From the NCBI GenBank assembly GCA_051362555.1, contig CM120649.1:1054001-1118000 (forward strand): DNA of 64,000 nucleotides, written 5' to 3'. Origin of the DNA: Lingula anatina. Its lineage: Eukaryota > Animalia > Brachiopoda. The number at the start of each line of letters is the position of its first letter. The first letter of the stretch is position 1. The notes under the pieces were generated by a model that was not told where the DNA came from, did no database searches, and worked only from the letters and a program-made list of their open reading frames with translations. This document shows, piece after piece, positions 5,390-52,272 of this stretch. Position numbers and translations under genes: made by a program.

Positions 5390-8300
5390 CTATGAAAACA
5401 AAGTTTTGATATCTGCAATGCGTGTTTCTCTTCGTTGCTCGGCCGTCTGCTTCTTCCCAAATGCTCCCTGCATCAGTTTGCGTTTCTTCTCCTGCAGTTC
5501 CAACATGCGCTCTTCCACTGAATCCTTCACAACGTACTGAAATGTACAAATGAAAAAATTCTAAGACCCCAGGCTGGTACTGACATCTGCTGGTACAGAT
5601 CTACTTTGGCTGCAGTTCAGATATTTCTTTATATCTATTTATCTAAATTATTGAATCCATGGTGTTATTTCAACTCTAAAAGATTGAGAATATTCAATTA
5701 TTATCTTACAATATAAATTATTGTTACATGGTAATAAATGACAGTAAATTACTTCTACTTCTGAGCACAAGGGGGTAACCTTTGCTCTCTCCAATTTCAC
5801 ATTGCCTTTCTATAATCTTAAAGGGAGATTAGCTCTGTTATTTAACAGACTAAGTAGGGTGGAATTCATACCACTCCTCCAGGTCATTCCTCAGGAATTA
5901 CATTTATCATTGAATCGAATATGGCTGACCCACTTGAATGCTTGGCGCGTTATCCCCATGGGGAATCTATTCAGTGTCTATTAGGGGATTATGCGGCAAG
6001 TATTTAAGTGGGCTGGCCATATTTGATCTGCTGAGATCTGTTAGTTCGCTGTTGTGAATGTGGCCCATATCTTACCTTTGTAATGATGACGTCCTTGGTT
6101 TGCCCGAGACGGTGACATCTGTCAAAACATTGCTCCTCGGATGCTGGGTTCCAGGCCTGCGGGAAAATAAATAAATGAATAAATAAATAAGAGGGTAGGC
6201 TACTGTGAAATAACCAACTTTTTTAACCTTTCGTGACCAAATCACTGCATGTCACACATGGACCCAATTATTACAAATTTATTACTATATTAAGGCCACA
6301 CTTTTTTATTTTTATGGATGACATCCTGCGCGCGCACCGATTTTTGTCTGTTCTCAAACCCCCCCCCCCCCCAAGGTAGTCAGTTGTCGCTAACGTCGTT
6401 ATTGATTTGCCAGAAAATGCAATCTGCAATCCTCGGCTCATTCCGCAAGCTCCATACTGTCATTGTCGACTGCAGAGACATCCGAGTACTTCCGAGTGCG
6501 GATAATGAGCTTTCTACGCATGCGTATTATCACCACGTGGAAATATGGCCGCTTTGCTGTCAAATTCATCTCTAGCATTAATTTCAAAATACACGCCAAT
6601 AAAAGTCATAAAGAGAACGGGGGCCATCGTTTTGGATTGGTTTGCCATTGATATTAGACATGGAGATATCACCCTTTTACAATTATACGAAAGGCTGGCG
6701 GCGACCAGCGATCATCGCCCGGAAAATTTCAGTGACATTCTGTCCAAAGCAGCACATACCAGGGTTTTTTTTGTAGCAAAAAAGGGTCGACAAGAGCGTC
6801 GTGATATTTGGTGGACTGAAGGTCAGACAGGCCACCCGATAGTTGGCTGCTACATGTGAGTCGAAGTAGACAAAATGGTATCGACCGAAATTACCTTTTT
6901 TAGATTTGGTAGTAGGAAGCATTGGCCTATCTTTGCTTCATTTTTTTAAACAATTCTGTGAAGTGTTTACAATGCTTTAATTTTCTGAGAGTACAAATAA
7001 AGATACGCTGTTTATTTGATATTTGTTTTATTGATTGCTATACCGACAAAATGCATGAAATAACCTTAAATAGATTTCCAGCTGTGTACTGAAAACATAA
7101 CTTTTCTTAAACATTTTTTTTTTGGACTGTTTTTTTTTTTTTTTTCGCCCGCTCGCCCCGATGTTGGGGTCCCCAGAGGATGTCATCCATAAAAATAAAA
7201 AAGTGTGGCCTAACTTAACTGAAATTAAGTCTACATGTATCATTGTAGTTGAAAGATATACTGCTTGGATGTTGTTAACAAATGTGAATACATGTTTTAA
7301 ATTGCTGCTGGATGCAAACAATACAGAAAATATTAGCATAGCCATGTTGCAGAACTAATTAAATTTCTGTTTTTCTTAAAATCTTAAACCTGAGGAAACA
7401 AATTTAGCATTTAGTCTTAAGGAGAAGGAAGTAAAACAAGGCAGCAAAGCTGTCAAATGTACAGACAAAAAAACAGAAAATAAAGATGCAAATAAGTGAA
7501 AAATTAAATTTTCACAAAAAACTGTTAAATTGCCAGAAAAATTTACCAAACAGACTGCGTTGCCTACTGAAGCTGTATGTTAGACCCATGTTTCTTTCCT
7601 GTAAGTTTGAGAACAGTAAGTGACATGATTTCCCTTAAATGGTCATCATAGGAGCAGTGCACAAAATAGGGGTTTCTTCAAATTTTGATGCAACATTACA
7701 TAATGTTTAACAGCATAATGACAATCAAATGTTATTAATAAAATATTAGTAACATGGACATTCAGAAAATGTGACAAGCAAAAGTCTTCAGGATCACGGA
7801 ACTTTAAAGTCACACCTTGAAAATGCCAATATGTGAAAAATTAAATTTTCACAAAAAACTGTTTAACTGCAAAAAAAAAAAAAAAAAAAAAAAACAGACT
7901 GCATTGCCTACTGAAGCTGTATTTTAGTCCCATGTTTCTTTCCTGTAAGTTTGAGAACAGTAAGTGACATGATTTTCCTTAAATGGTCATCATGGAAGCA
8001 GTGCCCAAAATAGGGGTTTCTTCAAATTTTGATGCAATATTACATAATGTTTAACAGCTTAATGACCATCAATTTTTAATTATAAAATATTTGTATCACA
8101 GATATTCAGAAAATGTGACTAGCAAAGGTCTTCAGGCCCATGGAACTTCAAAGTCACACCTTGAAAATGCCAAAATGTAAACAAGACAGCACTGTTCTGA
8201 AATGGGTTTATTTCCATTTTTAACACTTTTTTAACATAAAACAAAATAAACATTTTACTGCCATTTTTATATGACCAACTAAGAAAATTGATGAGATGGG

Positions 8301-10217: not shown

Positions 10218-11308
10218 CTGAAATCACACTGATAGTTGACACACAAATATACAGCTGAACATCTTAGTAATATTTTACAGACCAACAATTGCTTAATTCA
10301 CTTAAAATGATGCTATTTGTAATATCATTTTCCCCTTTTACATACACCTTTATCAAAAATATACTAACTTGTGTACACATATCACGACAGAAAAACATAA
10401 ACCTACAATACGTCTTCCAGTAAAAACACTGGGAAGGTTCTACAAAATGGCAGTTTCTACACATTGGCACTGGACTGCCATGGTCCTTCTATTGTGATAA
10501 CACTTACCTTGACAATGGACTGCCATGGTCCTTCTATTGTGATAACACTTACCTTGACACTGGTCTGCCATGGTCCTTCTATTGTGATAACACTCATCTT
10601 GGCACTGGACTGCCATGGTCCTTCTATTGTGATAACACTTACCTTGGCACTGGACTGCCATGGTCCTTCTATTGTGATAACACTCACCTTGACACTGGAC
10701 TGCCATGGTCCTTCTTTTGTGATAACACTTACTTTGACACTGGACTGCCATGGTCCTTCTATTGTGATAACACTCACCTTGGCACTGGACTGCCATGGTC
10801 CTTCTATTGTGAACTCCTCCTCTGTATTCTCTGGGACTGGGATCAGCTCATTTCTCTCAAGTTTACCACGACACAATGGACAATTGGCACCTTCCTGCAA
10901 TGTTTGGGAGAGAGAGGTTTTTATGCAATTAATAAACACATATATCTTTCAGGGTCAGGAGGTTTGAAGTCCTGGAAAATGGTTCATCTATTAAATATGA
11001 AGAAATAAGATAATGTTCAGGAGTCATTTATATCACTTCTGAGGGCATTTTTTTACACTACAGATCCAGACACTTAAGTAATTCATCAGTAATGAAAGAT
11101 CAACAGGTGCTTCCTACATAACAAGTGTGTACGGTCACCTAACTTTGTCCTCCACTCCACTTATCTGTTAGAAATATAATGTCTCATCACCAAGTCAAAA
11201 GAAATATAAGACTGGAGTTCAGTGTGTGCGTGTGTGTACTCACCCCCTTAGTCTGTATCACCCCCTTAGTGTGTGTGTGTACTCACCCCCTCGGTCTGTA
11301 TCACCCTC

Positions 11309-11356
<48 letters not shown>

Positions 11357-11381
11357 CACCCCCTTAGTCTGTATCACCCTC

Positions 11382-11449
<68 letters not shown>

Positions 11450-11655
11450 CACCCCCTCAGTCTGTATCACTCTCTCAATACAGGGTTTACAGAACACATG
11501 GACACACCTGGTGATAACAGGAGTGTTCAGAGGATCCAGACATATGGAACACTCCTCATCTGATCCTGAGTTTAACACTTGGAGAAGACTCTGGACTAAC
11601 TTCTCCCTCAGCTCTGCTGGCAGACTGCTGTCCATCTGACCACTTAGCTCTGGAA

Positions 11656-11686
<31 letters not shown>

Positions 11687-11889
11687 AGACTCTGGACTAA
11701 ATTCTCTCTCAGCTCTGCTGAATGACTTCTGTCCATCTGACCACTTAGCTCTGGAATAAATAAATGAATGAATGAATGAATGAATGAATAAATAAATAAA
11801 TAAATAAAGACTCTGCACTAACTTCTCCCTCAGCTCTGCTGGAAGACTGCTGTCCATCTGACCACTTAGCCCTGGAATGAATGAAGGAA

Positions 11890-11920
<31 letters not shown>

Positions 11921-13266: not shown

Positions 13267-13313
<47 letters not shown>

Positions 13314-16300
13314 ACAATGTCCTCCACCACATTTGATCTGTCAAAGAGGTACAAGTTGAAATAGAAACAAAAACATCTTATTATCAGCCAAAAGGTATTC
13401 AAAAGAACAAAAAAAATCTTCCTTACTTGAGAGCATATTCACTGCCGCCAGACAGAGGTCTTTCAATGGCACGTTGCCAGATATCGCGGGCAGTGAAGGG
13501 ATCGATCTTCAGAAACAGCACTAGCGTCCACAGGTCTCGAAGAGAGTTTTGGATAGGCGTGCCTGGAATTGTAAAAATTAGGAGAATTAAACATAGTTTG
13601 TTGTATGAACATCCAGATAAAGTCTGGGCTGGTTTAAACAAAAAAGAGCTTAAGTCTTTAGTTAATATTAAGACAATTTTAAACAGTCTATTTTGACTAC
13701 GTTAGCAGTACAACTCTTAAAGGTACATAGGAACCGAGCATCGTCGGAGCGTGGATTCCCAGTAACCACTTCTACTAGATTCTTATATGACTCAAATAAA
13801 TTTGGCATGCCAAGGGATAAACTGAATAGATCACTCGATCAGCCATAAAAGACCTTTAGAGTGCTCCTTTCTTTAAATTTATGGTTGTAAATTTAACCTA
13901 CTTCCGTGACCTACTTTCCTGCCCCATTGACATACAACTTAGAATGCCAGCAGAAAAATCTGTTCAAACATCATTTACGGGTAAAATTAAACAATGCCTT
14001 TTGGTAATTCTCTTAGTTATACTACTTGAAACTATATGCTGGCATTTGGTTGGTTTTTGTGACAAAAAATTGACTTTGTATGTATCTTTCAGTAAGTGTT
14101 TTGTGCCAGTCTTGAAAAAGTGTGAAAATAAAACTAAAACCATGTGTACCACCAGCGCTTACGCTGGTGGTACAATTAAATCATGATATGCTACTAACAG
14201 TCTGGTTCCCTCAGCATTGGAGTAAAATAAGGATTGAAATTTAGTTTCAAGGAACCATTCCCTGACCTGTCAAGACCTACTTCCTCTATGTCTGTAGTTC
14301 AAGAATAGCCTTGGTCATCTGTACAGTACATTAACTAACTAACTAAAAATTAAAATAAACGAGAGTATCAGAGAGGCGATAGCGCCTCAGGATATTGTAC
14401 CACCAGCTGGAGTTAGCGCATTCGAACGGAAAACCAAAAACAAACGGGAATAACTACCAGTGTTGTGTTTGACAAGCTCTTCAAAATGCAATAAACAAGA
14501 CAAGAAATATAAAAAAACAGCACAACTTTTTTAAAAATCGTCTGATCAAGCCGATTTTCAAGACAATAGGCTTGTCAGTTTTCTTTAAAATGCATTATCA
14601 GTGTTGCACATATATTGAAAGAAAAAAATAGGTCTATCTCTGCCAGTTTTGAAAATATAAGGAATAGAAAATTTGCAAAGTTCAGTACATGGTGAAAAGA
14701 AGGTCAAAGGTCAATTTAAATGTGACAGTTAGATGTCCAGCATATGACTTCCTATTCAAGTTCAAAAGTAACTATGGGTTTATCTCTGCTAGTTTTGGAG
14801 ATATAAGAGATAGAAAAATTGCAAAGTTCAGTTCATGGTGAAAAGTAGGTTGAAGGTCAATTTCAAGGTCACAGTTAGATTGCCAGTATATGACTTCCTA
14901 TTCAAGTTCAATAGTAACTATGGGTGTATCTCGGCTTCTTATGGAGTATTTCACATTTTATTTTCACCACTAAATATTGCTCAGTTGTGCTTCTTTATAT
15001 AGCGCAATTCCTTGACCGTATCGCAACCAAAAAATGGACACCACCTCCAGTAATGCACTTGACAAGCTCTACATAATGCAAAAAACAAGAGTTCTCTAGC
15101 ATTTACGGTTCCAGAATTACGGAAAGATTTCAGTTTCGGCATCTTATGGCCGTTTCTCCCATGAAAATGCACCGATTGACCCCAAACATGAAAGGAGTCC
15201 CTAATTGCATCCACTTACTATAATATGAGTGCTAAACTCTGTGTAGTTTCTGAAATTTGGCACAAATAAAAGTTTTTTTCTTTTGCAAAAAAATCCCATT
15301 TTTAGAAAATTTTGGCCTGTTTGACCTTGAAAAAAGGTCAAAGGTCAAATAAAAAGGCATATTTGAAATCCTCATATATGACTTTCGGTGAGACTTCTAT
15401 ACTAATTTTTCCCATAATTCCTTCCGTTTAGGAGATATATAGCATTGAATTTACAAAAAATTTGACAAGGGTGCATTTCATTGAGTGTCACGCCCAAGCG
15501 AATGCAGCGACTGAGACAAAAAAACCAGGGGGTTCAGGTTGAGATTATATGTGACCTAAATTCAAGAGATGGGGACACAGGTCCATGCGGTATAGGAGGA
15601 AAAGCAGTAACGGTGACTTGTATCCCACGCCACCTTGCGGAGCCGCTGGAGCTCATGGAGCCACGATACGAGTCAGGACTAAAACCATGAGTACCACCAG
15701 CGTACTCATAAACAAGGAACTGCTCCCAGACATCACCTGTCAAGACCCACTTCCTCTGTGTCTGCAAGGCGAGGATAGCCTTGGTCATCTGTGTGTTAGG
15801 ATTCCTGATGGTGTGACCTTCATCTAATACCACCCTCAACCACTTCACTTTACCCAGAATATTCTTCCCCTAGAAATATACAAATAGTTAATACCCAATT
15901 ATGGACAAAAGTACAGAAAAAAAAAAAAAAAACAAATGATCTGTAAATTTAAACACTATAATTTTTAAATCCTTCAATTGCTTCTAAACTGCAGATTTTG
16001 TGTATTTAATGTGGTGTATACATATTTCTTAATCCTTTCTTTCTTCTGTATAGTCTGTTACAAGCTTGTGTCAAGATAGTCTTATAATGTTAAGTCTTCT
16101 TTTTTTAATGTTAGTACAAAATAAAATATTTTATTACTATTAATTTAAATGCACGAAATATGCAATATTTATCAGATCAAAACTGTAATTTCTATTATCT
16201 TAGGATCAAACCTGAATTGCCACCATCACAAAATTGGAAAAGTGTCGTTTTATTATATGTTTTTCCTGAGCACTATTTCATATCTTTCTATCAGTGTTTT

Positions 16301-37300: not shown

Positions 37301-40300
37301 ATAGGCATACATTTTGTAAGTGTTGTCTGAAGACTTATATTTCAAACTCAACACCAGGAAGTAAATTCCGGTGTCCTGTGTGTCGGAAAGAGACTGAAGT
37401 TCCTAAAGATGGACTTGAGGGCTTCATTCACAATTTCTACATTGAAAGTTTGCAGGACACTGTACTTCAGTCAACACATAAGAAAAAGTGCAGATCTTGT
37501 GTTTTGTTGTCCCAAACTGAAACAGTGGCTACTTCAAAATGCATCACCTGCCATGACTACCTATGTGAGAAGTGTTCTTCATTTCACTGTGCTACCACCC
37601 TTACTAAAGATCACAGGGTACTCACTTTTCAACAACTTCACAGCAGTGAGTATCAAAAAGAAATCCAAGAGCAGCAGAAGATTATCTGCCCAGAGCACAA
37701 AGGTGAGATGATACGATACTTTTGTTCAGACTGCAATGTCCCCATTTGTCGTGACTGCAGAGATCTACACCATGATGGTCACAAACTTATCTCCCTTGAA
37801 AAAGCTGCAGAGATGGTAAAGCCACAACTTCAAGTCAAATTCTGTGGTATGGAGAAAAAAATTGAAACAGGTGAGAAAACAATAGCTAAAATTGATGAAA
37901 TATTGGCAACCTTCCAAGAAAATGAAAGCTTTGTTCAGCAGAAGATCAAAACTCGTGCAGCTCATCTACGTCAACTGGTAGATCAACGAGAGAAAATCTT
38001 ACTACAGGAGCTTCATCAAACCACCAGCACTCATAGAAATAATTTACAAATTTCCCACAAAAACTGCAGTGCCACTTGCTCCTCTATCAAAACCACAACA
38101 GATGTAGTAAAGAACATTCTTCAACATGGTGCCCCCATAGATGTCCTCATGTTACAACATCAACTTGGACAGAAACTAGATGAGCTACAGTCCACTTCAG
38201 CTGTGGATGATATTCCAGAGGAACTAAATCTCACACTCACCACCAACACAGAAGTGGACCAAGAGATATCCAGTGGGGCTGGCCTGGGGAATGTGCAGAT
38301 ATCTACACTACCAGCTTTGCCCAAGATGAAACCACAGGCTGTATGTATACTAGAGTTTGACACTGGCTGTTGGGTGCCAGGGGACATTTCAGTGAGTCCA
38401 AACAGGGAGTATGTTACTACACATGGTTGGAAGAACAAGATCAAGGTTTGTAGTTCAGATGGTACATCAAGGCAAGAGATCAGAAGTGTCTCACACACAC
38501 AGTTGAAATATCCAGCAGGGATCTGTCACTTCCCTGATGGAAGGATGGTTCTTTCTGATAGAGACAATAACAAACTGTTCATCCTGTCACCACAGTGGGA
38601 AGTACACCAAACTGTAGATGTCAACAACCCATGTGGTGTGGCTCTCAATAACAACTGCACTAAGATTGCTGTGGCACAGGGTAGCAGAGAGAAGTCTGTG
38701 AGTGTGTTCAGTATTGATATCAAAGGGGAAATAACTTTAACTGATGTGATAAAGAACAAAGATGGCAAGCAGTTGTTCAATTATCCATATAAAGTGGCAT
38801 ATATGAGCAACGGGTGTCTTGTTGTTAGTGATGAAACTCCAAACAAACTTCACATCCTAACCCCATCTGGTGACCCACTGTATCAGTACACAGGACCTGA
38901 TAACAAGTTAGGTGAACCTCGTGATGTTTGTGTTGATGCATATGACAACATACTGGTTACAGACCGTGATAACCACTGCATACACCTTGTATCCCCAGAT
39001 GGGAAGTTCATCCAGTACATAGCAACCAGAGCTGATGGACTAGCTAATCCACTGGGATGTACCATCAACCAGGATAGAGATGTGGTTGTGACTCAAGGGA
39101 ATGGGAAAGTGAAAGTATTCCAATACTTAGAAAAATGACATCCTTTACAATGATAAGAGACTGAACAATATGTACTTTTCTGACATATCTCAATGATGTA
39201 GTATACAAGATGACAAAGCATCCAAATGTAAAGATACAAAGCAAACAAGACAGCAAAGCTGTCAAATGTACTGACAAAAAGCAGAAAAGAATAATGGACA
39301 GAATAGGATATGGTCCATTCTGGTGCAATAATATGTTACACTTAACTGTAAAATCAACATCATAATTTAATTATGCCCAACGGATAATACCAATTAAAGA
39401 ATAAGCATGGGTTGTTTCCCTGGTACTTATTAATGAATAGATTTTCTTTTATTTCCCTTTCTGTTTGGGTTGAATAGATAAAAGCATTGGTAAAAGTAAC
39501 AATTAAACACTCATTGTTAAAGACGTCACATTTAAGCCTTTATGACATCACCTAGTAACAAATAAACAAAACCCCCTGAAGAAAGAAAGAAACCGGTCGG
39601 GGCAAGAAAGTTGAAAGAAAGTTTATTATATATATATATATATATATAGTAAATTTTAATTAGTTATTTGTCTATGCCATATTGTTTGTTTAAATGTCAT
39701 GTTAAAGAATTATATAGATTAAGTATTTTTTAAGAACTTTTATACGTTTGTTACACTACTAAACAATGTTTACAAATGTAGTTAATTATAAATTTATTGT
39801 TAAGAACTTAATGAACTAATTAATGTAATAACTAGCACGTTCTTATAATTTATCTATATATCTTTGCATGCATCTTGATCTGTATGTCTATACATATAAA
39901 TTCTATTATTTTTTGTTTGTTTGCAACAGGAATCATAAAAAATGTTAATGAAATGGGAAGTAAGTATTATTATAGTAACTATCCTTGGTCAATAACATAA
40001 TATATATTAAAGGGTTTAATTTAACATTATCAACTTAAAATGCTTAAGTTTTACTAATAAAATGAGAAGAGTCTAACTGATAGTTTTATTGTATGATAGG
40101 GATATATAGGTAAACAAATTATAAACATCTGTTTTAGTAAAATATATTTTGTTGCTTCATACAACATATAAATGATTATTTGTGCCTAATTTTTGACTGA
40201 ATGGCAATTTATATATGTATGCTTAAACATATTAAATGGATTCATAAATTTGTACTTTAAAATAAGGTAATGATTACAAGATGGATGTAATCACATTTGA

Positions 40301-43300
40301 TTAACCATTATTAATATTTTCAGATAGATGTATTTAAAGGACAGAAAGAGTATTAATTGTAAATTACTAGCCAGTTAATTCACAAATATATCATTTTAAA
40401 TTCTAGTTATATTTACTGGAAGGAAGGAATATTATGTAATTTGACTTTATATTTCATTAATCAATTATTTTTCTTTACATATACCTGTAATGAGTACTTT
40501 CATATAAACAGAATATGAAATGATCAAACTAGAAAATCACAAACATCCGCCAAGGCAGGAGTTTTTCGATTATTATTGATTATTGATATATTATTGATCC
40601 TGATCACCACCAAAAACTAATAATCTGTTTCTTGGCCCACTTCTAACAGTTCCTGAAAATTTTATTAAAATCAGTCCATAACTTTTTGAATTATGTTGAT
40701 GACAAACAAACAGACAAACAGGTGAAAACATTACATGTACCTCCTTGCTGGAGGTAATAACTCATCTTTGGGTAAATTTAATTAAGCATGATTTAAATAA
40801 AATGGTTTTAACTTTTGTGATATAGAATTTATTTGGTAATAGATTATTAAATTTTATTTGTGAAAGGTTTGAGGCTCAAAACTTATTTCAGCAGGAGATT
40901 AATTATGATAAGGTTTATTTCAGTTCAAAGCTGAGTGACTGTGGAAGTATTTTATTCACACGTACTTGAATGAAGTCAAAAGTGATGTGTTGGCATTCAT
41001 TAGGTGTGTGTGAAAGTTATCTTGAGTTTCTCAGTGGAAAGTTATTTTAACTACCATCATGTAATAAATATGATTGAAATTGAATAAAGCAACCTTTTTG
41101 ATTTTGAAAATGAGACAGCAGTTCTGTTGTTTTTGACACCGGCATCGCTCGGTGAAAGTACACAGCAACAACAGATGCAGGTGACAGCTATATGTGCAGA
41201 CACAACTGATGAGAAAATTACAACCTATAAATTATTTTTTCATTAATAAAATTCGAGTCGTTTAAATGATGGAGATTGGGACCACTGAATTTCTTAAATA
41301 ATGTTTAAGAAAGCACTTACAATCCAGTTGCTGAGCACAGACAGAGGACAGACAATTAGAGTTGTTCTTGGGCCAACACAATTAGTGCGACCATCACTAC
41401 TGAGGTTGTTGGCACCTGTAATAGTAAATATCATTTACAATAAGCTAAAAACTTATCTGTAACAGATTTGAAGCATTCCTTACATTAGGCTAAAAAAATT
41501 TAAAGGCGTACAATGCAGATAAAACAATTATATTATAGCACAGACTGCTTAAACAGCTTAGATGTCTGGCACACCTACTGAAACTGCTAAACAAAAGTTA
41601 ATTACCCCCTAGCAGTTTCATCTAAGCTGCTTAAGCTGAAAGCAATTTAGCAAGGAACCCCTCAGAGATAGATCGAACCATAGTTAGTACAACAGGGTCT
41701 GGGAATGGTCCCATAGTGTCACTTACCTGGACTTTTATTTTGAATGTTCTCTTTCACGTCCACATCTGGTAGAGAGTCTTCATCAATCACTGAAAGTAAC
41801 ATTTGAACATATGTCTTAAAACTATTCACCATGTCAAAATTCAACACCCAGTTTAACAGATGACAATCAAGCCAGGACATTTATCATATCAAAACAGAAC
41901 AATAAGGCCACTTTCTCTGTCCAATATTTCATTTTTATTCTTTTTAAAGGGGGTGGGTGGGTTTTTCATTGACCATCAATTACCTATGGGAGCAGACACT
42001 GTGCCTTTCCTCTTCTTACCACTGGAGACGTCAGCATCAAGATCTGGCAACTCAAGACTTGGCAGGGGTGGTAAATTTGGCAAAGGATGGACTGAAATAA
42101 TGCACATATCATGTAAGTAAAGCATTATATATAGGATACATAAGTAGATCAAGCACTCAACAAGGTGGAAATGCACTTACATTCAATTTGGCTTTAAAAG
42201 AGTGGTTCTTACAACTTGGTTCATTCTATTCTATACTCTACAATCAGCGATGAGCAGCTTTGGCTCCAAAAAAAGTCCAAAATCTGCCAGAAAACTCTCA
42301 TTACTGTTGTAAGCACCCAAACCACCCGAAAAAGTCAATAACCCGCTAATAGTTATAAAAATCTCATCCCTCTACCATACCTTTGGCACCAGGTATAAAA
42401 GGGGCACTCTTCCTCTTCCGTGACTTCTTCAAGCTGAATTCCTGCTTCACTAAGGGAGAGTTACAGGGTTTTTCCTTCTTCAAGGAGTATGGGGTTGTGG
42501 CAACTTCAGTCTCCACTCCAACACATGGGGGCACAGGAGATTCTGGTGTGGCTGGTTCTGTCTTTGGCCACTTGGACTGGTCAGTTACATTGGTGGTTTG
42601 TCCACTGGACATCTCCACAGGACCTGTACCATGCTTAATATGTCTGAATTGGTCACCTGTGATTGTTTTGGACACACTGGACAACGGAGGCAGTGGCTGT
42701 GGTTGACCAGAAGCAATTTTCTCTGGACGCCAGCTCGGCAGGACGGTTCTCTTGAAGGTGGTGTTGGTCAGCTGGAGGGTGGACACACCTGGCTGGTTCT
42801 GGATGATGGTACCTTGACCGTTAGTGACAGGGGTGGAGTGTGTGGCCACAGGGTCCTCGGATCTCACCCTGATATTCTCCAGTCTCACTGTTAATACTGG
42901 ACCTGTGCCAGGGCTTCCAACAGGCACCAGAGCCTGAGATACCAGATCTGGTTTATGAACTTCTTTATTTTTCTCAGATGATGCGTCTGCCTGGGTTGGA
43001 ATAGTACCATCTTGCCGTGGTTCCTTGAATTGGATGTTTAAAGTTGATTCTTCTGGGTCTTGGCACTCTGTATTACCTTCCAAGACAGTGGTTGACTTTC
43101 TCCCATGTTTGGCTACAAGAGAATTCAAATATGTGTTATGTGCTGTATAATTTAGGCTAATAAAAAGTGTAAACATCTATTTTTTCTATTATATGCCTTA
43201 AAACATACTTACAGTCATAAACTATTTCACTACTGTTTTTTTTTCTTGACAAATAGAAAGTTTAAATATTTCCAACAAGTTTACCTTTCTTGGTAAGTAT

Positions 43301-46300
43301 CTGACAGTGGTAATCCTTTTGTTCCACCCCTGGGTCAGTCTGGTGAATTAGTTTCCTTATATTAGCTGGCACAAATATCTCTTCTTCATCATATCTGGCA
43401 GGCTTCTTGATGTTTCTTTAAACATGAATTATATAATATTTAGTCTTATCAATGTTTAACAAAGGGACACTTGGGTGTCATATTGCTTAAATTAGAGATA
43501 ATTACTGAACAAAATGTTAACCTGTAAAAAGTTTTAAAATACAATTTGTTTCATATACATTTGAACACAGTGATTCCACATCTGAGTTACTCATGCAATG
43601 TAAAAAATCAAACAAACTAACAAATAGGTAAAATTTAAATAAATAAATAAATAAAATAACCTTTTGGGTCTGCTCTTGACATTTGGGGATGATGGTTTTG
43701 GTGCTGGTGCAGACTTGGATCTTCCTCTTCTCCCCCTGGGTTGGGCAGGCTCACGATGAGATCCACTTGATCCCTGCCCTTCAATGACATCACTATCTGC
43801 AGCCTGCATTGGTGCCAGTTTGGGGTCATCTGGTGCACAATCTGGCCTTTCTTGCACATCGGCTTCTTGCTCAGTTTCAGCAATAACCTCACCTACAGTG
43901 TCTGCTAGGCCCCCTTGTACAGGGTTTGTAGAAATTTCAGGCACAGACTGTGAGAGGCCTTCACGTACAGGGTCTGTAACAACTTTGCCATCAGGAAGTG
44001 GAACAGTTTCAGCACAGATTTCAGTGCCACCTGCAACGACTGTGCTGCTATTGCCACTGGAACCGTTCCCAGAGGTGGTAGTGCCACCAAGAGTAACTGT
44101 AGCATCCTTCACAGTGACTATATCACTACCTAAAGTAACTGAAGCACCATTTAAAGAGACAGTAGCAGTGTCCAAAGAGAAAGTATCAGCATGTGTTACA
44201 GAAGCACCATTCGAGGTTTGGGCACCATTTGAGACAGGGGCGCCATCCAAAGACACAGAAGCACCATCAAGAATGACTGCAGTGCCATTCAGGGAGACTG
44301 TAGCACCAGTAAGAGAGACTGTAGCACCAGTAAGAGAGACTGTAGCACCAGTAAGAGAGACTGTAGCACCAGTAAGAGAGACTGTAGCACCAGTAAGAGA
44401 GACGGTGGCATCTAAAGTCCGAGGTAGAGTATTACACTGCTTGTCATTATGTATTGCAACTGTGTTCATTTCAGGCGATGAGTTTTCAGAAGGCGAGTTT
44501 GAAAAAGGTTCCACATTCACCGAAGGACTGCTCTTTTTGCCTTTGCCTTTATTCTTTGATGCTGAAAAACAAAGGTTCATTTGAAATAAATTGCTGAGAG
44601 CAAGAGTCAAATATGAGAAGTCATTTAGTTTTTAACTATTTTAGCAAAAATTCATCATCACTTACATAACATAACTTATAATATCCGTCTTTTTCTTGAC
44701 AAAAGGTCACAATCTGTAAAATTCCTGATACATGACTGTTTTTATTCACTAGTTTCCAAATTATAATGAAACCGAAGACTAACAATAAGGTAGAAATATT
44801 CTTAAAATTTGTCTCATTGCATTATAAAGTGGCAGCATACCTTTGGTATTCTTTGTGCTCTCAGTGGAACTGTCGGAGAGGTACATTATTTTATCCTCAC
44901 TGTCTGATGTGTACTTCACAGGTTTACCTACATTTCTGAAATATATCATTTTATTAGGATACAAAATTAAAGAAACAATTTGAGACACACTGTCAAATTT
45001 AAACTCCAAATGTTTACCAACAAATTCAAATAACAAAGGATAGCTATCTCAGAAATCATTTGAGTACAAAACACTTCAATGATTTCTAAATCAACACTAT
45101 TGACATCACCATATATCATATAGCCATTTTACCTGGATTAAAACATAAAATCAAAACTACCTTCTTGGTCGTGACCTCGCATTAGAAGTGCCCTGTGGTT
45201 GGACGGAACCTTTCGGTTTAAACTCAGGGTCCTCTTTTAGTATCATCACTGTACTGGACGCCTTCTGACTCTCCTCTTCTATTAGGGCACAAAAACAAAA
45301 AAATCTTCTCATCAACTTTTTCTTTCACCATTAAAGACTTTTTAAGGTATACACTTTTTTAAATTTGGCCTATTTATCTTTTTAAAAGTTAAAAAATCTA
45401 ACTTGTGACTGTAACTTATAAGATTTTGTTGAAATGTCAGAAAGTACATTGTTGTGAGTGCCTGCAACCCTTAAATCTTGAAAAGAAAAAAAAAGAGGAG
45501 CTTGAAATTTTCAAGTAATAACCTTATGTACAGGTGTTACTGTGTCTGTACATAAAAAGTGTCTGGTATACCTGAGCTGTCTTCATCAGACACACAATCA
45601 TCAGAGAGAATCTCCTCATCCTCAGAACTTCCCTCAGGTACCAGAGTCACTTCATCAGTTTTACTAGAACTGGTGGCCATGCCACGCATCTTCAGCTTTT
45701 TCTTGATTGTATTCTTCTCTGTCTTGTACCCCTTGCTCCTGTTGGCTTGGATTCTGGCATCTTTTTCAAGCTGGGGAGATAATTACAGACTTAAGATCAG
45801 CCGACCCAAAAGACATCTACACAGATAAGAATTTAAGATACAATGTAAAACATTGAAAGAAATTCACCTATTGTCTTTAAACAAGTTTCAGAACCTACTG
45901 GTCATCTGTGATCTGTCAATCCAGCATTTTCACAGGATCACAACTCAAAAATGAGCCTCATACATTAAGAGATTGAAGATATAAGCGTAATTTGCACAGA
46001 ACCTAGGCTAAGAAATAAACACTACATGTGAACTCAATATTTTATTCTATATAAATGAGAAATTTCAAAGATGTTAACATCACCACAGAAAAATAAACAG
46101 TAAATGCCTCAAAACAATTTTTAGAGCAATTTACTAGGGAATTATACATGAAATATAACAATATATATCTTCTATTAAGTGAAAAAAATTAAGCTGATTG
46201 CATTTTAAAGGGCTTAAAGAAACTGCCAAAGCAGTCTTGGCAAGTTGCCAACAGATTGGCCGAGTTGGCAGATTTAAAGAGTGATATAAAACAGACTATG

Positions 46301-49300
46301 AAAAGAGAAGACCTACCAGATATGTTATCCAGAATAGCCCAAGGACTAGTAAAGACAATATAAGATGGGTTGAAAAAAAAACACGACAGAAGTGGAAAGC
46401 AAATTTAAAAATAAGCCGAACAGCCTAGTTGTAAGATACCAGGCTAGCCTCAGTGTAATGTTCTATGTCTAGAAAATGAGAACATCAACTAAAGTCACAG
46501 GAAAAAAATCTAATATATAATTTCTTTATGTTGTTAGATTTTCCAAGCAAGGGAATGATAATGGTTGAGAAGAAAAATTGACAAAATCATCTCCCAAACA
46601 GGTACAAACCTCCCAAGGAAAAAATGGTGCAAGCCTGTTACAAATATGCAATACCGTAACGAGTGGTATCATGGATCCTGCGTCAATGTCACTTCAACTG
46701 AAGCACTTAACATTGATAAATACAAGTGTGTACAATGTCAAATCTAATTGTTATTTTTCATTGTTATTACAGATATGACCAACAACATTAAAGAAGAAGC
46801 ACCAGTAGTGAAGGATACTTCGCTAAGATTGTAACATGGTTCCCCAATTGATGTCCATGGTACCCAGTTTATCCAGGATTTGGCCCAGGCTCTGCCTGGG
46901 GAAGATCAAAGCCTATATTTCAAAACACTGCTGGCAGGGATTGCTACCATCTATAAAAATGAGCTTCATGCTCCGGGTAGGTATGCCATGTCTTTGGCAT
47001 GGTTGCAGCAGGTGGCCTACCAATTACAATCCAGGGGGCTTGCGTCAAAAAACTGGATTGAGAAGAATGTTTGGCGCCTTCCCAAGAATTACACACCTCC
47101 TGCACGAGTCTTGAAATCTGCTCCCTCCGTGGAGTATGGTGGACCAAAAACTTGTGATTTCAGGCTTGGGAAAGACCCAAACATAACCCTCATTACCCAG
47201 GTAGAATCACAATTGGGTGAGGCCAAACTTGGTGTGGGGTCAAAAAATTAAGACCCCAACTCCAGTCTTGACTCCAGTGAGGAGGATAGACTTCTTGGAG
47301 TCCCAAGGGAGGCTGAAACCAGCGTGAAACCTCCAGCTGTTCCAGAAACTTCTATACCAGGCATAACCATGCTGCAAAATACCATCATCCCTAATAACTT
47401 TTTCATCTCTTTTTCAGGATCACACCTCCCTGAAGCTGCTGTCCCAGCATGGATTCATGCTCTTGCACCACTTGGCCCATGTGAGGGTGGGGGGGTGGGG
47501 GGAGGAGTAAGCAAAAAGGGAAATGAGGGCTCCTTGGTGGAGGCGTGGTAAGAAACCCCGAAAGGGGTTGGTTGCTGCTAAGTCCAAGGTGGATGAGGGG
47601 GCAGAGGAGGGCGGCACCTCACCAGACAACACACCTGAGGGGTGACAGTTGATAATACCTATCACAGCCCTCATTTTCCTGAAGAAGTCTGACTGTCAGC
47701 AGATGAAACATTGCCTGGTACATATCAGTTACTTCTTCCTTTAAAGCTATTGACAGAGGAATCTTGATTGGTTTTCATCTGAGGAGACATTTCCCTTACC
47801 CGAGAACTTCTGATATTTCCTGGTACACGCTCCGCTAGCGGCTTATCATCTACAAAATTGGTCACGATCAGCGCAATCATCTGCAGCGTTTTCCCAAGGC
47901 CCATATCATCAGCTAGAATTCCTCCGCGTACGCTTTGAGGTCTCTGCTCCTTGGCGTAATTTGTCACCGAATTAAAGTATCTGCCATCTTTGGTTTTCTT
48001 CCAGAATGGTGGCAGCTCGGTCGCACTTTCTCTTTGTATCATCCAATGAAGAGCTTGTTTCTGGTGTGGGAAGAGTGGTGTAGAAATGGCCTGAAATTGA
48101 AGTTACTCACTGTTCTATTGGTCATCTTTTAATAGAAGTATATTACTAATACTGATGGTAATGATAAAGACTACTTGCAGATCATGCTCCATATGCCTAT
48201 GTGTGGGACATATATAGATTAACAGCACAATTTCTAAACATACTTTTAACCATCGACTGTGCATATACATTTCACAATTACACATTCTAAAACATTCCCA
48301 GTGAATAACATCAGCATACATTCAACATTTTCTTGCATTGACTAAACTTGCAATTTATCAAAGAATCATTTACTGTAACAGCCCATTGCCAGCAATTTCA
48401 AGGGGGGGGGGGGGACTTTTGAACATGAAAACTTGCAAAAAATGCAGTTCATTGACTATGGGCCTTCTGTACAACTTAATGGACTCACTTTTGTCCAGTT
48501 TATTTCAGACTAATAGCTAATATTATTTTCATAATTGGGGGTGAGGTGGGGGGGGGGGGAGTTACCAACCTTGGCTGGTTCAGCAGTTTTTGTTGTATCA
48601 TACTGCTTTAAATCTTCAAATAATTTGTCCAACTGTCCCTTCATCTGAAATACGAAAACAATTTATTTGAATTGCTTAAACACAGCACACCACACAATTG
48701 CATAATCAATTTGAAAAAAAGTATTAAAAAAAGCAAAGTGTTAATGCAAAAATTTCAATTTTTCAGAAAAATAAAAAAAAGCCATGTGGCAAGATACAAA
48801 ATAGGACTTCCAACCAACAAATTTATGTGAGCTAAACTCATCATGAAATGCTGATACTGCCGTCACATACCTCAGCCTGGGTCAAGCAGACCCTAGTGGA
48901 CAGTGGACTCCCCAGGGTCAGTCCAGCTCCTACCCCCGTCTTGGATGTCCCGGGGGTCTCCTTCAAGTAGTGACCATAGTATCTAAGCTTGTTAACACAA
49001 CCCAGTCTGTTCTCTGGGAGTCCCCAGAAGCTCAGCTCTAGCGGCATGCTGTACATGTTTTTACTACCATATGGTACAACACTGGATAAGAAGAGAATAA
49101 CTGCAGGACTTGAGAGCAAGGTACAGCAGAAAAAAACTGATTGACAGTTTGGTATTATTTCAAACAAACTTAAATATAATTGCCAAAAAGAAGGAATATT
49201 ACATATCACAATGCAGTCCAATCAATGAGGGATTGTGTGAACCTGAAGAAAAGGAAATAGAAAAGTTAGTAGGGATGGCAGTATGCTGCAGCATGGTTAC

Positions 49301-51138
49301 TCCTGGCATAGAAGTTTCCGATATAGCTGGAGGTTTCTCGCTAGGTTCAGCCTCTCTTGGGACTCCTGAGAGCTTATCCTCCTCGCTGGAATCAAGAGTG
49401 GAGTTGGGGTCTGTATTTTTTTTTTTTTTTGACCCCACACAAGTTCGGTGTCACCAGAACGCAGTTCCACCTCCATAGGGTGAACCAATCCACTCCCATC
49501 TATCACCTGGTTAATGAGAGTGATGTATGGGTCTTTCCCAAGCCTGGATTTATGAGCCATTGATCCAACATACCCTGCATAGGATGCAGACTTCACGACT
49601 CGCGCAGGTGGTTTATAATTCTTAGGAAGGTGCCAGATGTTTTTTAGACACAAGCTCTCTAGATTGTAATTGGTAGGCCACCTGCTGCAGCCATACCAAA
49701 GACATGGCAAACCTACCAGGAACACGAAGCTCTTTTTAATAAACAGTAGCCATCCTTGCTATCTAAGTTCTAAAAGAAAGTTGCTGATCCCCTGCAGGTA
49801 TGCCTGAACTAAATCCTGAACAAATAGGGTTCCAGGGACTTCTATAAGAAACCCATGCTGCAGCTGAAGATTCACGTCATTTATAATAGGTGCTTCTTCA
49901 GTGCTAGTGCTGGCCATATATACCCATGCTGCAACATTTTCTGTGACAAATCTTTGACACACTGGTGAAGACAAAGCACCCACCAAGTGTGTTCTATTCA
50001 ACAATATTATTATATATCTTTAAAAGTAAAATATAATTTCACATGAAATGGGGGCAGAGAGACAGAGAGAGAACAAAACAGAAACAGAAGAATAAACTTG
50101 TCACATGGTTTTAAGACATAGGAGATGAGGCAGGCAAATAAATGGGGGGGGGGGAAGAGAGGAGAAGGGGGTCAGCCAAACAGAATCCATTTATTATAAG
50201 GTTTTAAGACATAGGAGATGAGATAAGGCAGATAAATTAAGGGGGGTGGGGTGGGGGTGGTGTTAGGGGAAGAGGTGGAGGTCAGCTAAATCATCCACAC
50301 CTACCCTTCCACTCTGGCTATCCCCTGGTCCATGATGGGTGCGAGAGCTGCGGCCAGTTCCCTCTTGATGTGCCCCACCTGGACACTGCCCACATTGTCC
50401 ACTCTCACCGCGTTAACGTCATACCTGTTGTGGGGCTCACAGACCAAAGAGACCATTTCACCTGTGTTCACCTGGAAAAGTTCTCATGTGTATAAAAAAA
50501 GGGATTAAAAAGCAAGTTGTTTTGTCATTTGGACTGCCTATTAGAGCAGAGGACGAACTACTGGTGGGACAGCTAATATTTTTGTTAAAAAATATAATTT
50601 AAAAATAAATAAATAAATGAATACAAATTAAAATTAGTGCTGATCCTGTTATTACTTGCATTTAGTATATGTGAAGGCCCTTGCTATCTGTAATATATTA
50701 TTATGTGCATGCTTTGAAATAAATAATTTTCTTATGTCAATACTAGTACTAGTAGACTAAATTTTCATCTCAAAGTTTACACCAGCTTGAGAAATCCCCA
50801 CTGGAGTCACTTACTGTGCCTCTATAATACTGCAGTCCTACCACTGTTCCCTTCATAGTGCCAAATAGTACTTCATTGTCCAAGTAATCATCGGGCTCCA
50901 CTGCTTCAACCATATCGTCAACATGATTGACCATGTGTCCTATGACATCACCGCTGCCCAATGGAGATGGTCCACGAATGAAGGATAGGTCGAGATTCCG
51001 CATGTACGCATTTGACGCAGAGTAATGCGATGTGCCTTTTCGACTTTTCTTTTTGCTTTTTCTCCAGCCATATTCGCGGTCTTCTCTGTCCCATCCGCCA
51101 TAACTGTGCCACCTTCGTTTTTTCCACCACCTCCCCAT
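5390..51138 (-). CDS. HLTF: Helicase-like transcription factor (HLTF/SMARCA3, Rad5 family), spliced; HIRAN + SNF2 ATPase + RING + helicase C
   Basis: GT-AG exons with consistent phases: 50815-51138, 50305-50471, 48871-49081, 48570-48644, 47800-48090, 45572-45770, 45161-45278, 44841-44935, 43661-44561, 43285-43415, 42381-43112, 41984-42091, 41727-41789, 41321-41415, 19882-20025, 15737-15869, 13427-13562, 12881-13060, 12329-12456, 11453-11649, 10778-10894, 10105-10217, 9626-9806, 6076-6156, 5390-5536 (sum 5067 nt). Motifs: HIRAN ([35 protein letters not shown]), motif [14 protein letters not shown], Ia [84 protein letters not shown]. The exon 14 to 15 join spans a duplication boundary. Confidence 0.88.
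6294..7210. mobile_element. PIF/Harbinger-type non-autonomous element
   Basis: 34-bp perfect TIR GGCCACACTTTTTTATTTTTATGGATGACATCCT; TAA target duplication at 6291-6293 and 7211-7213; absent from the paralogous intron near 34520. Confidence 0.88.
7434..9613 (+). mobile_element. Non-autonomous Helentron/HINE (pearl/DINE-like) element with internal 161-bp satellite (~8580-9520, ~6 copies) and a ~340-bp duplication
   Basis: 5' AACAAGGCAGCAAAGCTGTCAAATGTACAGACA; (CGGCGA)n microsatellite ~9530-9565; 3' hairpin TGTACAGACACA-TC-TGTGTCTGTACA then TAAAAA; the paralogous intron at ~34830-34850 is an empty A-run. Confidence 0.8.
10460..10812. repeat. 45-bp tandem repeat (8 copies) of the HLTF exon 21 end plus donor
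   Basis: Junction copies at 10777, 10732, 10687, 10642, 10597, 10552, 10507, 10462; encodes [13 protein letters not shown](A/V)K. Confidence 0.97.
10778..20025 (-). CDS. HLTF: HLTF exons 15-21 (motifs II/III, RING), present only in the second duplication unit
   Basis: [17 protein letters not shown]; [14 protein letters not shown]; [12 protein letters not shown]; LRRMKTQ..PLVQLP; [11 protein letters not shown]; C3HC4 RING split over exons 20-21. Confidence 0.9.
11221..11470. repeat. Repeat of the HLTF exon 20 end plus donor, interspersed with (CA)n (4 copies)
   Basis: GTGATACAGAC..GGGG|GTGAGTA(CA)n on the minus strand; donors at 11452, 11359, 11286, 11243. Confidence 0.92.
11585..12012. repeat. 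Repeat of the HLTF exon 20 acceptor plus exon start, with (TTTA)n (4 copies, ~100-120 bp)
   Basis: (TTTA)nTTCCAG|AGCTAAGTGGTCAGATGGACAG.. with the AG at 11650, 11751, 11872, 11985. Confidence 0.95.
14248..14322 (-). pseudogene. Degenerate duplicate of the HLTF exon 16 3' end plus donor
   Basis: Similar to 15713-15792; reads [17 protein letters not shown]|GTCAGG. Confidence 0.8.
14357..15712 (+). mobile_element. Same family as 28843-33209 but with only ~2 core units; a separate 3' end of the family lies at 14136-14180
   Basis: Shared 5' end (ATCAGAGAGGCGAT..TGTACCACCAGCTGGAG), core units ~14630-14930, shared 3' body. Confidence 0.75.
16300..19936. repeat. ~96-bp tandem array (~37-38 copies) built from the 3' end of HLTF exon 15 plus its donor site
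   Basis: The unit on the minus strand reads CAACAACA(G/A)GATATTGTGTTGACTACATATCAGACTGTTACTACAGATAGTAAG|GTATGG plus an A-rich spacer; the last copy is continuous with the real exon. Confidence 0.97.
20300..21137 (+). promoter_or_regulatory. Upstream region of TRIM copy B with E-box and possible 5'UTR intron (20764-21079); conserved upstream of copy C (~36190-37182)
   Basis: TCACGTGG near 20312 and 36198; GTGAGT donor and ttctctcccaccag acceptor conserved in both copies. Confidence 0.35.
21138..23090 (+). CDS. Intronless TRIM-NHL E3 ligase (RING, 2 B-boxes, coiled coil, NHL propeller; TRIM2/3/56-like), copy B
   Basis: 650 aa ORF: [23 protein letters not shown]; [19 protein letters not shown]-box1; [22 protein letters not shown]-box2; NHL repeats such as [16 protein letters not shown]. 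Confidence 0.95.
   Translation: MATARDDRDEEESLRAKITENFVSCPLCLEEYKDPTDLPCRHTFCKCCLKDYTPDLTPGSKFRCPVCQKETEVPKDGLEGFTHNFYIESLQDTVLQSTHKKKCSSCVLLSQTETVATSKCITCHDYLCDKCSPFHCGSRLTKDHRVLTFQQLHSSEYQKVIQEQQKIICPEHKGEMIRYFCSHCNVPICRDCKDLHHDGHKLISLEKAAEMVKPQLQVKFCGMEKKFEKGEKTIDIIDEILTTLQENETLVQQKIKTRAAHLRQLVDQREKTLLQELHQTTSTLRNNLQISRKNYSATCSSIKTTTDVVKNILQHGAPIDVLMLQHQLGQRLDELQSTSAVDDIPEELKLTLTTNTEVDQEISSGAGLGDVQISRQSALPKFKPQAECMLEFDTGCGLTVDISVSPYREYVTTHGQRNKVKVFSSDGTSRQEITRVSDTQLKCTVGICHSPDGRMILSGMINNKLFILSPQWEVQQTVDVNNPCGVALNNSCTKIAVAQGGEKSVSVFSIDIKGKITLTDVIKDKDGKQLFNEPYKVAYMSNGCLVVSDISQKKLHILTPSGDPLYQYTGPDNKLGRPFGVCVDAYDNILVTDCNNHCIHLVSPDGKFIKYIATQADGLANPLGCTINQDRDVVVTQGNGKVKVFQYLEK
25349..27830 (-). 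pseudogene. Duplicate of HLTF exons 9 (3' end) to 14: 27753-~27830, ~27372-27502, 26454-27188, 26057-26164, 25800-25862, 25349-25443
   Basis: Homologous to 41321-43740. Exon 9' is 5'-truncated at the duplication junction and exon 10' has lost its acceptor AG. Exons 11'-14' keep open frames and splice sites, so they may be usable. Confidence 0.75.
27822..27948. repeat. 30-bp repeat x4 at the duplication-unit junction
   Basis: CTTCCTGGACAGCAGGCTATGTAGAGCTGA; single copy at the equivalent junction 4236-4270. Confidence 0.9.
28843..33209 (+). mobile_element. HINE/Helentron-like element with expanded 146-bp satellite (~29050-32220, ~22 copies)
   Basis: 5' AACTAGAGGATCAGAGAGGCGAT..TGTACCACCAGC; 3' hairpin TGTACCGCCAGCG-CTAA-CGCTGGTGGTACA; absent from the paralogous site at ~5145. 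Confidence 0.8.
33453..35428 (-). CDS. HLTF: Second, intact set of HLTF terminal exons 22'-25' (35316-35428, 34854-35034, 34316-34396, 33453-33599)
   Basis: Same lengths and phases as 10105-10217, 9626-9806, 6076-6156, 5390-5536; open frame, GT donors and AG acceptors kept, same stop. Whether they are used is unknown. Confidence 0.75.
33814..33857 (+). mobile_element. 44-bp 5'-truncated LINE 3' end (RTE-like) with (ATG)n tail
   Basis: 13-bp target duplication ACACTGGGAACAC at 33801-33813 and 33858-33870; GTGGCCTTATGTCCCACGCGGGACGAAGAG plus microsatellite tail. Confidence 0.7.
35427..35766. repeat. 16-bp minisatellite (CCTATCCCTGTGTACA, ~21 copies) abutting the exon 22' acceptor
   Basis: Direct reading; on the minus strand most units contain TAG|GTG. 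Confidence 0.95.
35890..36053. mobile_element. Short TIR element with a 5-bp target duplication (TTAGT)
   Basis: CAGAGGC..GCCCCTG ends; TTAGT at 35885-35889 and 36054-36058; empty site in the duplicated segment near 36775. Confidence 0.7.
37183..39138 (+). CDS. Intronless TRIM-NHL E3 ligase, copy C (RING Cys40 replaced by Tyr)
   Basis: 651 aa ORF colinear with copy B, same domain order. Confidence 0.93.
   Translation: MATARNDRDEEESLRAKITENFVSCPLCLEEYKDPTDLPYRHTFCKCCLKTYISNSTPGSKFRCPVCRKETEVPKDGLEGFIHNFYIESLQDTVLQSTHKKKCRSCVLLSQTETVATSKCITCHDYLCEKCSSFHCATTLTKDHRVLTFQQLHSSEYQKEIQEQQKIICPEHKGEMIRYFCSDCNVPICRDCRDLHHDGHKLISLEKAAEMVKPQLQVKFCGMEKKIETGEKTIAKIDEILATFQENESFVQQKIKTRAAHLRQLVDQREKILLQELHQTTSTHRNNLQISHKNCSATCSSIKTTTDVVKNILQHGAPIDVLMLQHQLGQKLDELQSTSAVDDIPEELNLTLTTNTEVDQEISSGAGLGNVQISTLPALPKMKPQAVCILEFDTGCWVPGDISVSPNREYVTTHGWKNKIKVCSSDGTSRQEIRSVSHTQLKYPAGICHFPDGRMVLSDRDNNKLFILSPQWEVHQTVDVNNPCGVALNNNCTKIAVAQGSREKSVSVFSIDIKGEITLTDVIKNKDGKQLFNYPYKVAYMSNGCLVVSDETPNKLHILTPSGDPLYQYTGPDNKLGEPRDVCVDAYDNILVTDRDNHCIHLVSPDGKFIQYIATRADGLANPLGCTINQDRDVVVTQGNGKVKVFQYLEK
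44290..44410 (-). repeat. Coding 21-bp repeat (ATVSLTG)n in HLTF exon 9
   Basis: GAGAGACTGTAGCACCAGTAA x5-6, with degenerate units continuing to ~44080. Confidence 0.9.
46600..47425 (+). pseudogene. Decayed coding remnant of an unidentified element, with a degenerate PHD finger at ~46620-46745
   Basis: [26 protein letters not shown] matches the C-terminal half of a PHD finger; stops and frameshifts downstream; homologous to 49235-49905 in inverted orientation. Confidence 0.55.
47800..48090 (-). CDS. HLTF: HLTF exon 5 (SNF2 Q motif and Walker A)
   Basis: [43 protein letters not shown]; flanked by ttcag and gtaag. Confidence 0.92.
48871..51138 (-). CDS. HLTF: HLTF coding exons 1-3 (start codon, HIRAN domain)
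   Basis: ATG 51138; [18 protein letters not shown]|[52 protein letters not shown]|[20 protein letters not shown]; canonical splice sites. Confidence 0.9.
49235..49905 (-). pseudogene. Second decayed copy of the same unidentified coding element, inverted
   Basis: [30 protein letters not shown] vs [29 protein letters not shown]; [16 protein letters not shown] vs [16 protein letters not shown]; [17 protein letters not shown] vs [17 protein letters not shown]. Confidence 0.6.
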
Positions 51139-52118: not shown

Positions 52119-52272
52119 CCAGCTCGAAACACGTCTTTCTTCCCGCTAACTCTGGCTGGCGAGATCCAGGGACAGATCTCGCGAGATTGGCGTGTTCTAT
52201 AAATAGCCACACTGTCAACCACGTGATCCTACTTTCGAAGAAGACCTCAACAAGGAGAGCTGTGTTGTAAGT
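52119..52272. promoter_or_regulatory. Candidate bidirectional promoter with a non-coding first exon on each strand
   Basis: Locally CpG-rich; palindrome ATCTCGCGAGAT 52176-52187; ATTGG (CCAAT) 52186-52190; TATAAATA 52198-52205; CACGTG 52220-52225. Minus-strand donor GTAAGTAA at 52111-52118 could pair with the HLTF acceptor at 51171; plus-strand donor GTAAGT at 52267. Confidence 0.6.

Follow-up and report, generated by a model that had tools for sequence, protein, structure and literature searches.

Three tandem partial HLTF units around nested TRIM genes in Lingula anatina, read as a possible recombinant haplotype

HLTF of Lingula anatina lies on the minus strand of the DNA analyzed here in three tandem partial units, each arranged around a nested TRIM gene, as determined by mapping with the Lingula 5′ model and five full-length homologues (Table 1). 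The window is the whole stretch of 64,000 nt that was analyzed (GCA_051362555.1, CM120649.1:1,054,001-1,118,000, forward strand). With moderate confidence, we read the window as a recombinant haplotype from a module of variable copy number, formed when unequal crossover put a broken 3′ half of HLTF by the promoter and an intact one behind it.

Organization of the Locus and the Composite HLTF

The promoter-proximal unit (unit 1) consists of exons 1–14, TRIM C and exons 22′–25′, and the next (unit 2) begins inside exon 9 and continues through exons 10′–14′, TRIM B and exons 15–25. Both arrangements had been described in an earlier note on this DNA, and they are borne out by mapping with AG/GT boundaries. 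The two duplication units of that note are therefore confirmed; a third, which begins at about position 4236 and in which a 92-nt deletion removes most of exon 13″, had been overlooked. As the note stated, exons 15–21 are missing from unit 1, where about 10.0 kb of unit 2 (exons 15–21) is swapped for about 0.7 kb that includes a local duplicate and a 16-mer array. With all five full-length homologues, tblastn finds no second copy of exons 16–21 within the window. The segment that joins the flank of unit 1 to exon 9 of unit 2 contains 4.2 copies of a 30-mer. Upstream of exon 1 (51200-64000), there is no long ORF, and 74 stop-to-stop frames of 50–120 aa are present.

Table 1. Features of the HLTF–TRIM locus, in positions of the window
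Feature	Position	Strand	Basis
HLTF exons 1–14 (HIRAN, Walker A, long linker); only 5′ half	41321..51138	-	homologue mapping
Near-identical tract, unit 1 copy: exons 12–14 and intron up to TRIM 3′ end	39050..42300	.	comparison of units
TRIM C, single-ORF RING/B-box/NHL, 651 aa, antisense in intron 14	37183..39138	+	ORF, Pfam
Deletion junction, unit 1	35429..36117	.	unit comparison, repeat scan
Exons 22′–25′, open frame	33453..35428	-	mapping
4.4-kb insertion, splits flank behind exon 25′	28851..33240	-	unit comparison
Remaining 3′ flank and junction into last 71 nt of exon 9 (27823)	27753..28850	-	unit comparison
Partial exon 9 of unit 2	27823-27753	-	mapping
Exons 10′–14′ of unit 2	about 27501-25349	-	mapping
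TRIM B, 650 aa	21138..23090	+	ORF, Pfam
HLTF exons 15–25 (DEGH box, RING, second helicase lobe); type expressed in RNA run X11	5390..20025	-	mapping, RNA
96-bp array, 37.9 copies, of exon 15 3′ end and donor	16299..19937	-	repeat scan
Third unit: flank-to-exon-9 junction as in unit 2, deletion into exon 11, exons 12″, 13″, 14″	3023..4236	-	unit comparison
TRIM A, 3′ part, gene cut by window edge	1..764	+	ORF

Exons 1–14 followed by exons 15–25 form an open frame of 1,688 aa, in which all 25 exons are mapped and all 24 introns are GT-AG. Exons 15–25 of unit 2 contain neither a stop nor a frameshift. The matching phases reported previously are found (phase 0 at the end of exon 14 and at the starts of exons 15 and 22′), and an earlier jump into the exons of unit 2, which had also been proposed, leaves the frame open whether the switch is made after exon 10, 11, 12 or 13; the five switch points after exons 10–14 give frames of 1,688–1,689 aa. 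Exons 1–14 joined to exons 22′–25′ also form an open frame, of 1,343 aa and without the DEGH box and RING, and direct joining of exon 14 to exon 23′, 24′ or 25′ gives products of 1,192, 1,245 or 1,218 aa, respectively. The skip needed to produce the composite is 21,295 nt from exon 14 to exon 15, in agreement with the ~21 kb given in the earlier note, or about 16 kb (e.g., from exon 11 to exon 12′). The longest other intron of HLTF is 4,012 nt.

Exon 2 matches five solved HIRAN chains of human HLTF (E about 1e-13). The SNF2 motifs with an inserted RING (Walker A in exon 5, DEGH box in exon 16, C3HC4 in exons 20–21) are complete only when units 1 and 2 are combined. The composite resembles HLTF and Rad5, a family marked by ATPase, ubiquitin ligase and fork-reversal activity, in having HIRAN, Walker A, DEGH box, RING and the second helicase lobe, and its C-terminal part is 55–60% identical to three animal HLTFs. 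It differs from them in its linker, which is about 800 aa long, and in that its halves are parted by a broken duplicate on this chromosome. A 21-bp coding repeat (5.6 copies; 44294-44410) in exon 9 extends the linker. Residue 119 of the 5′ half in the window is Cys; the public model P0001 and 103 of 109 homologues have Arg there. In the comparison with HIRAN chains, Cys119 sits three residues before the position of the NN90,91 pair of human HLTF, which is described as needed for HIRAN function (PMC4666394).

Divergence, Damage and Expression of the 3′ Halves

Divergence between units 1 and 2 is 9–17% around exons 9–11, 0–1.2% from about 42300 to about 39050 (start in unit 2 near 26370) and 4–10% across TRIM. 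Within this region, a tract of ~3 kb is near-identical in all three units, with divergence down to 0–0.4% from about 42300/26370 and up again at 39030; its unit 1 copy equals unit 2 all along and unit 3 from about 41580. Variants are shared by blocks: unit 1 equals unit 2 over 42300 to about 41600, all three units are equal from about 41600 to 39050, and past 39050 unit 2 equals unit 3. Unit 1 also has private indels of 45, 74 and 2 nt inside the shared tract. Such sharp-edged identity tracts with changing partners are footprints of unequal crossover or conversion, which assembly collapse could mimic.

Exons 10′ and 11′ are near-neutral relative to exons 10 and 11 (dN/dS 0.99 and 0.75, respectively), exons 12′ and 14′ are identical to exons 12 and 14, and exon 13′ has one synonymous change. 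Exons 22–25 and 22′–25′ differ by 25 synonymous and 2 nonsynonymous changes (dN/dS 0.02), whereas neutrality of one copy over the whole period predicts about 42 nonsynonymous changes. This implies that both 3′ halves were translated in a working helicase until recently, and rules out that exons 22′–25′ are a long-dead pseudogene. The deletion of exons 15′–21′ is probably young, judging from the sequence. The intron and synonymous divergence between the two 3′ halves is 10–25%, compared with a heterozygosity of 1.6% given for the Lingula genome (PMC4595640), and ordinary allelic divergence is therefore rejected as the source of the difference between the B and C types.

The terminal exon set that would have to be skipped had been considered intact, which is not the case. 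A purine-rich 16-mer array at 35426-35766, whose unit is part of a high-depth dispersed repeat, runs up to the edge of exon 22′, and the only AG available to the 22′ acceptor comes from this array. On an acceptor matrix built from the acceptors of HLTF itself (a small training set), this AG scores -7.6, whereas all 24 true acceptors of the gene score at least -0.6; the acceptors of exons 23′, 24′ and 25′ are normal (8.1, 9.1 and 4.7, respectively). The nearest exit is thus damaged, yet three normal acceptors remain. In unit 2, exon 10′ has lost its acceptor, as there is no AG at its expected start. About 210 nt past the stop codon in exon 25′, the flank is interrupted by the 4.4-kb insertion, which has a 146-bp array, subterminal inverted repeats and a 3′ hairpin. 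Another element, at 14357-15702, is 72–74% alike to this insertion (28851-33240), and both have the 146-bp internal array, the subterminal inverted repeats and the 3′ hairpin before CTAG. We take the two to resemble non-autonomous Helentron-type elements.

Raw RNA runs were mapped for 3 of 9 over the first stretch and for 1 of 9 over the second, and X11, a run probably from another animal than the window source and of which about 6/100 was read, is the only one that informs on HLTF (X14 has no depth on HLTF exons 10′–13′, and X17 has 1–3 reads per HLTF joint). In X11, joints 11–12, 12–13, 13–14 and 14–15 are covered by 56, 69, 72 and 69 reads, respectively. Its exon 11 has the unit-1 letter at 17 of 18 listed sites, the remaining site being private, and its exons 22–24 have the unit-2 letter in 94–100% of reads at 16 of the 17 listed sites (20 diagnostic sites in all). 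There is therefore an mRNA whose 5′ part has the letters of unit 1 and whose 3′ part has those of unit 2. The earlier note had proposed RNA-seq as a check of joint 14–15 against joint 14–22′: 150 reads run from exon 21 into exon 22, and no exon-14 loose end is present at exon 22′ among the five listed rows, so that 14–22′ is rejected as the main product in X11. Joints 23–24 and 14–24′ fall outside this count because reads are cut at a skipped repeat (34398-34447). At three diagnostic sites, the exon 23′ letters of the window are absent from all reads (0 of 211, 0 of 155 and 0 of 164; for the 155 reads, the 95% upper bound is 1.9%). About 2–5% of X11 reads represent one more spliced 3′ type, which is different from exon 23′ of the window.

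The private alleles of X11 indicate another animal or haplotype. On the chromosome of the window, the composite mRNA could arise only by skipping 16–21 kb; the X11 reads fit the mRNA of a 21-kb splice and that of an ordinary contiguous gene equally well. Of the proposal that HLTF is rebuilt by splicing across partial duplicates, one part stands, in that mRNA of composite type is present in one RNA run, but a contiguous gene predicts the same reads and the deletion is not fixed. Rebuilding by a splice across complementary duplicates is therefore possible and is not needed to explain the data.

The best match of exon 5 is the Lingula anatina model P0001 (98% identical), which spans exons 1–13 and ends there, and which is followed among the matches by mollusc and other animal HLTFs. 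P0001 is named ‘flocculation protein FLO11-like, partial’ despite its HIRAN and SNF2 domains, and is located on a separate 98-kb contig. The public annotation includes this one 5′ half and two 3′ halves with complete exons 16–25, each of which differs from that of the window at 8 alignment columns; one of them carries both amino-acid marks of exons 22′–25′. Because both keep exons 16–25, the deletion is not fixed, and the tandem 3′ halves are real and shared. The two annotated 3′ halves and the closest TRIM model are all listed on a 696,231-nt contig, which suggests one scaffold.

Each of the DNA runs X1, X3 and X4 contains two or three types of exons 22–24 with mosaic letters, and letters of exon 23 are mosaic across copies and runs. 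The copy types differ among the three runs, for which contig depths are not copy numbers and a filter drops records. The exact exon 22′ letters at 35354/35357 are found in one of the three runs (X1); no X3 or X4 contig has them, an absence that is weak as the filter drops some contigs, and a variant exon 22 joined to intron 21 occurs in X4. X1 contigs equal the C-type introns and exon ends of the window, with 0 differences over 441, 213, 192 and 97 nt, and differ from it at five sites in exon 23′; X1 and the window may not be independent. An X3 contig is like the flank of unit 1 (4 differences and 4 gaps in 475 nt). The depth of X3 is 5.4 over 27495-27796 versus about 56–78 on exon 11, where it has the unit-2 letter at only 4 of 17 diagnostic rows. 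None of the contigs listed in other DNA runs bridges either junction, 35428 being one of them.

Explanations for the Order of the Units

In the reading that we favor, a haplotype with exons 1–14 and a C-type 3′ half would have recombined out of register with a haplotype having a B-type half first. The crossover would lie near 26370, where unit 2 passes from 9–17% divergence to identity with unit 1. This single event could account for the constraint on both halves, each having been promoter-linked on its own haplotype, and also for the identity tract and the match of the unit-2 half to the expressed type. The C half would have lost exons 15′–21′ recently at the inserted repeat element, either before or after the crossover. 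Transcripts of this chromosome would mostly meet the strong acceptors of exons 23′, 24′ and 25′ first, and joining of exon 14 to them would yield a frameshifted product of 1,192 aa or truncated ones of 1,245 or 1,218 aa. This chromosome would then be a weak or null allele, to which Cys119 may add, and HLTF would be supplied by ordinary haplotypes, presumably contiguous, with a 5.3-kb TRIM-bearing intron 14. Several findings speak against such recombination: the public 5′ model, which is on its own 98-kb contig, goes no further than exon 13, the lost 22′ acceptor and split 3′ flank would favor skipping, and the 2–5% of a second 3′ type in X11 means that more than one 3′ half can be transcribed. 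In addition, the 10–25% divergence of the halves far exceeds 1.6% heterozygosity and would demand two haplotypes of great age. The deep B/C split, which gene conversion blurs, given the mosaic letters of exon 23, may stem from long-term balancing selection on the nested TRIM.

If the order is real, a splice of 16–21 kb past the broken half might instead yield full-length HLTF, with the loss of exons 15′–21′ tolerated as the second 3′ half took over, perhaps after both 3′ halves had for a time been served as alternatives by a single promoter. The matching phases with all five switch points open, the damage to the 22′ acceptor and 3′ flank, the undisturbed exons 15–25 of unit 2, the constraint on both 3′ halves though one 5′ half is found, and the X11 mRNA of the predicted make-up with its minor second 3′ type are in line with such a splice. 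It would, however, have to pass over three normal acceptors (23′–25′) and four more (11′–14′), the 23′ letters of the window are missing from X11 at all three sites, and the X3 and X4 contigs without the exact 22′ letters suggest that the form in the window is not fixed. We consider this course rather unlikely, and hold as only tentative the wider proposal that one HLTF promoter feeds tandem alternative 3′ halves, both under purifying selection, the gene surviving a seven-exon loss via a 16–21 kb splice that passes over two antisense TRIM genes and a dead unit with its terminal exon. An assembly artefact, by a haplotype crossing or a swap of two loops at the shared 3-kb tract, would make the true first unit 1–14/TRIM B/15–25. 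The tract, near-identical in three places, lets inner segments swap without altering short-word content, the swapped order is a complete gene that matches the X11 RNA, none of the listed contigs spans 35428, and coverage in X3 is low over 27495-27796. Against this, the window has no N and resolves tandem arrays of 3.2 and 3.6 kb with unit-level variation, which suggests reads longer than the tract; moreover, unit 1 has its private indels inside the tract, and C-type introns and flank are present in public DNA (X1 and X3 contigs). An artefact is accordingly judged unlikely. A decaying copy at this locus, with another complete HLTF at a different place in the genome, is highly improbable: the search with tblastn covered the window, which leaves room for such a gene, but exon 5 has one Lingula model among the best 120 of 394 matches, exon 23 has one cluster of two 3′ halves among the matches listed, and X11 carries unit-1 letters at nearly all listed exon-11 sites (17/18).

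The favored recombinant haplotype has a counterpart in the human RCCX module. Its tandem segments are described as holding an entire inner gene along with truncated fragments of the neighboring genes (STK19B, TNXA), and unequal crossover and gene conversion reshuffle them into chimeric loss-of-function haplotypes (PMC8362596). The likeness is in the way of working, no sequence homology being implied, and lies in the three tandem units with truncated gene pieces and in the footprints of unequal crossover or conversion. Two features of the layout set the Lingula locus apart from RCCX as described there: it is the host gene that supplies the truncated pieces, and one of its introns holds the inner gene in antisense orientation. 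The copied 3′ half also remained conserved at the protein level (dN/dS 0.02), unlike TNXA, a pseudogene with a frameshift. For dystrophin, it has been reported that skipping of duplicated exons, induced by antisense oligonucleotides, can restore the full frame (PMC1931584); skipping in HLTF would, by contrast, occur naturally and involve passing over a terminal exon. Within a search that left subscription literature largely outside, no paper was found that includes both HLTF and Lingula, and none on complementary partial duplicates joined in one transcript. If the recombinant reading is true, a conserved DNA-repair gene lies in an array that varies in structure, with a fast-changing nested TRIM as its driver or companion, broken alleles segregate, and very old 3′ halves are exchanged by recombination; this would also account for the public annotation having HLTF in pieces and wrongly named. 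If the long splice is true, the locus is a natural gene rescue by skipping of a terminal-exon cluster into a partial duplicate, and would open both the rules for skipping terminal exons and what first becomes of partial duplicates to direct tests.

Nested TRIM Genes and Tandem Arrays

RING, B-box and NHL of TRIM B and TRIM C are all above the Pfam cut-off. The two genes are 88.3% identical, and TRIM A and TRIM B have 2 differences in 759 nt. The third Cys of the RING is Tyr in TRIM C, and is Cys in TRIM B and in eight public paralogues. The dN/dS between TRIM copies is 0.48 and is highest in the NHL part (0.66). All 15 TRIM-NHL matches at E<=1e-60 are Lingula models, and 11 of them are 73–88% identical; TRIM A/B, TRIM C and the two closest public TRIM models are 10–12% apart from each other. 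The gene is a member of a species-specific expansion of single-ORF TRIM-NHL genes, listed on contigs of at least 13 different sizes. These genes have the same RING, B-box and NHL as TRIM2/3/56/71-like TRIM-NHL genes; the genes described here differ in being nested in HLTF intron 14 and in having been multiplied along with the host exons. At eight listed TRIM sites, C-type letters dominate in X17 RNA and X3 contigs.

Counting the true one, the exon-end/donor motif occurs 33 times without mismatch in the exon-15 array. It is one of four tandem arrays built from exon ends with splice sites (16299-19937, 11585-12019, 11226-11426 and 10464-10812), the others representing the start of exon 20 with its acceptor (about 113 bp), the end of exon 20 with its donor, and the end of exon 21 with its donor (45 bp, 7.8 copies). 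The public model P0122 starts with sequence like the unit of the exon-15 array, which may therefore be common to P0122.

Three small ORFs, at 46835-47251 and 49297-49758 (both intronic) and at 6509-6859, have no Pfam match, and an atlas search with the first gave scores all below 0.8 and no credible match. An inverted pair with 71% identity lies in introns 5 and 2 (46847-47425 and 49235-49845), with ORFs of 138–153 aa that have a common motif. Upstream of the gene, the segment 57134-57303 is ~70% like intron 24 of both 3′ halves.
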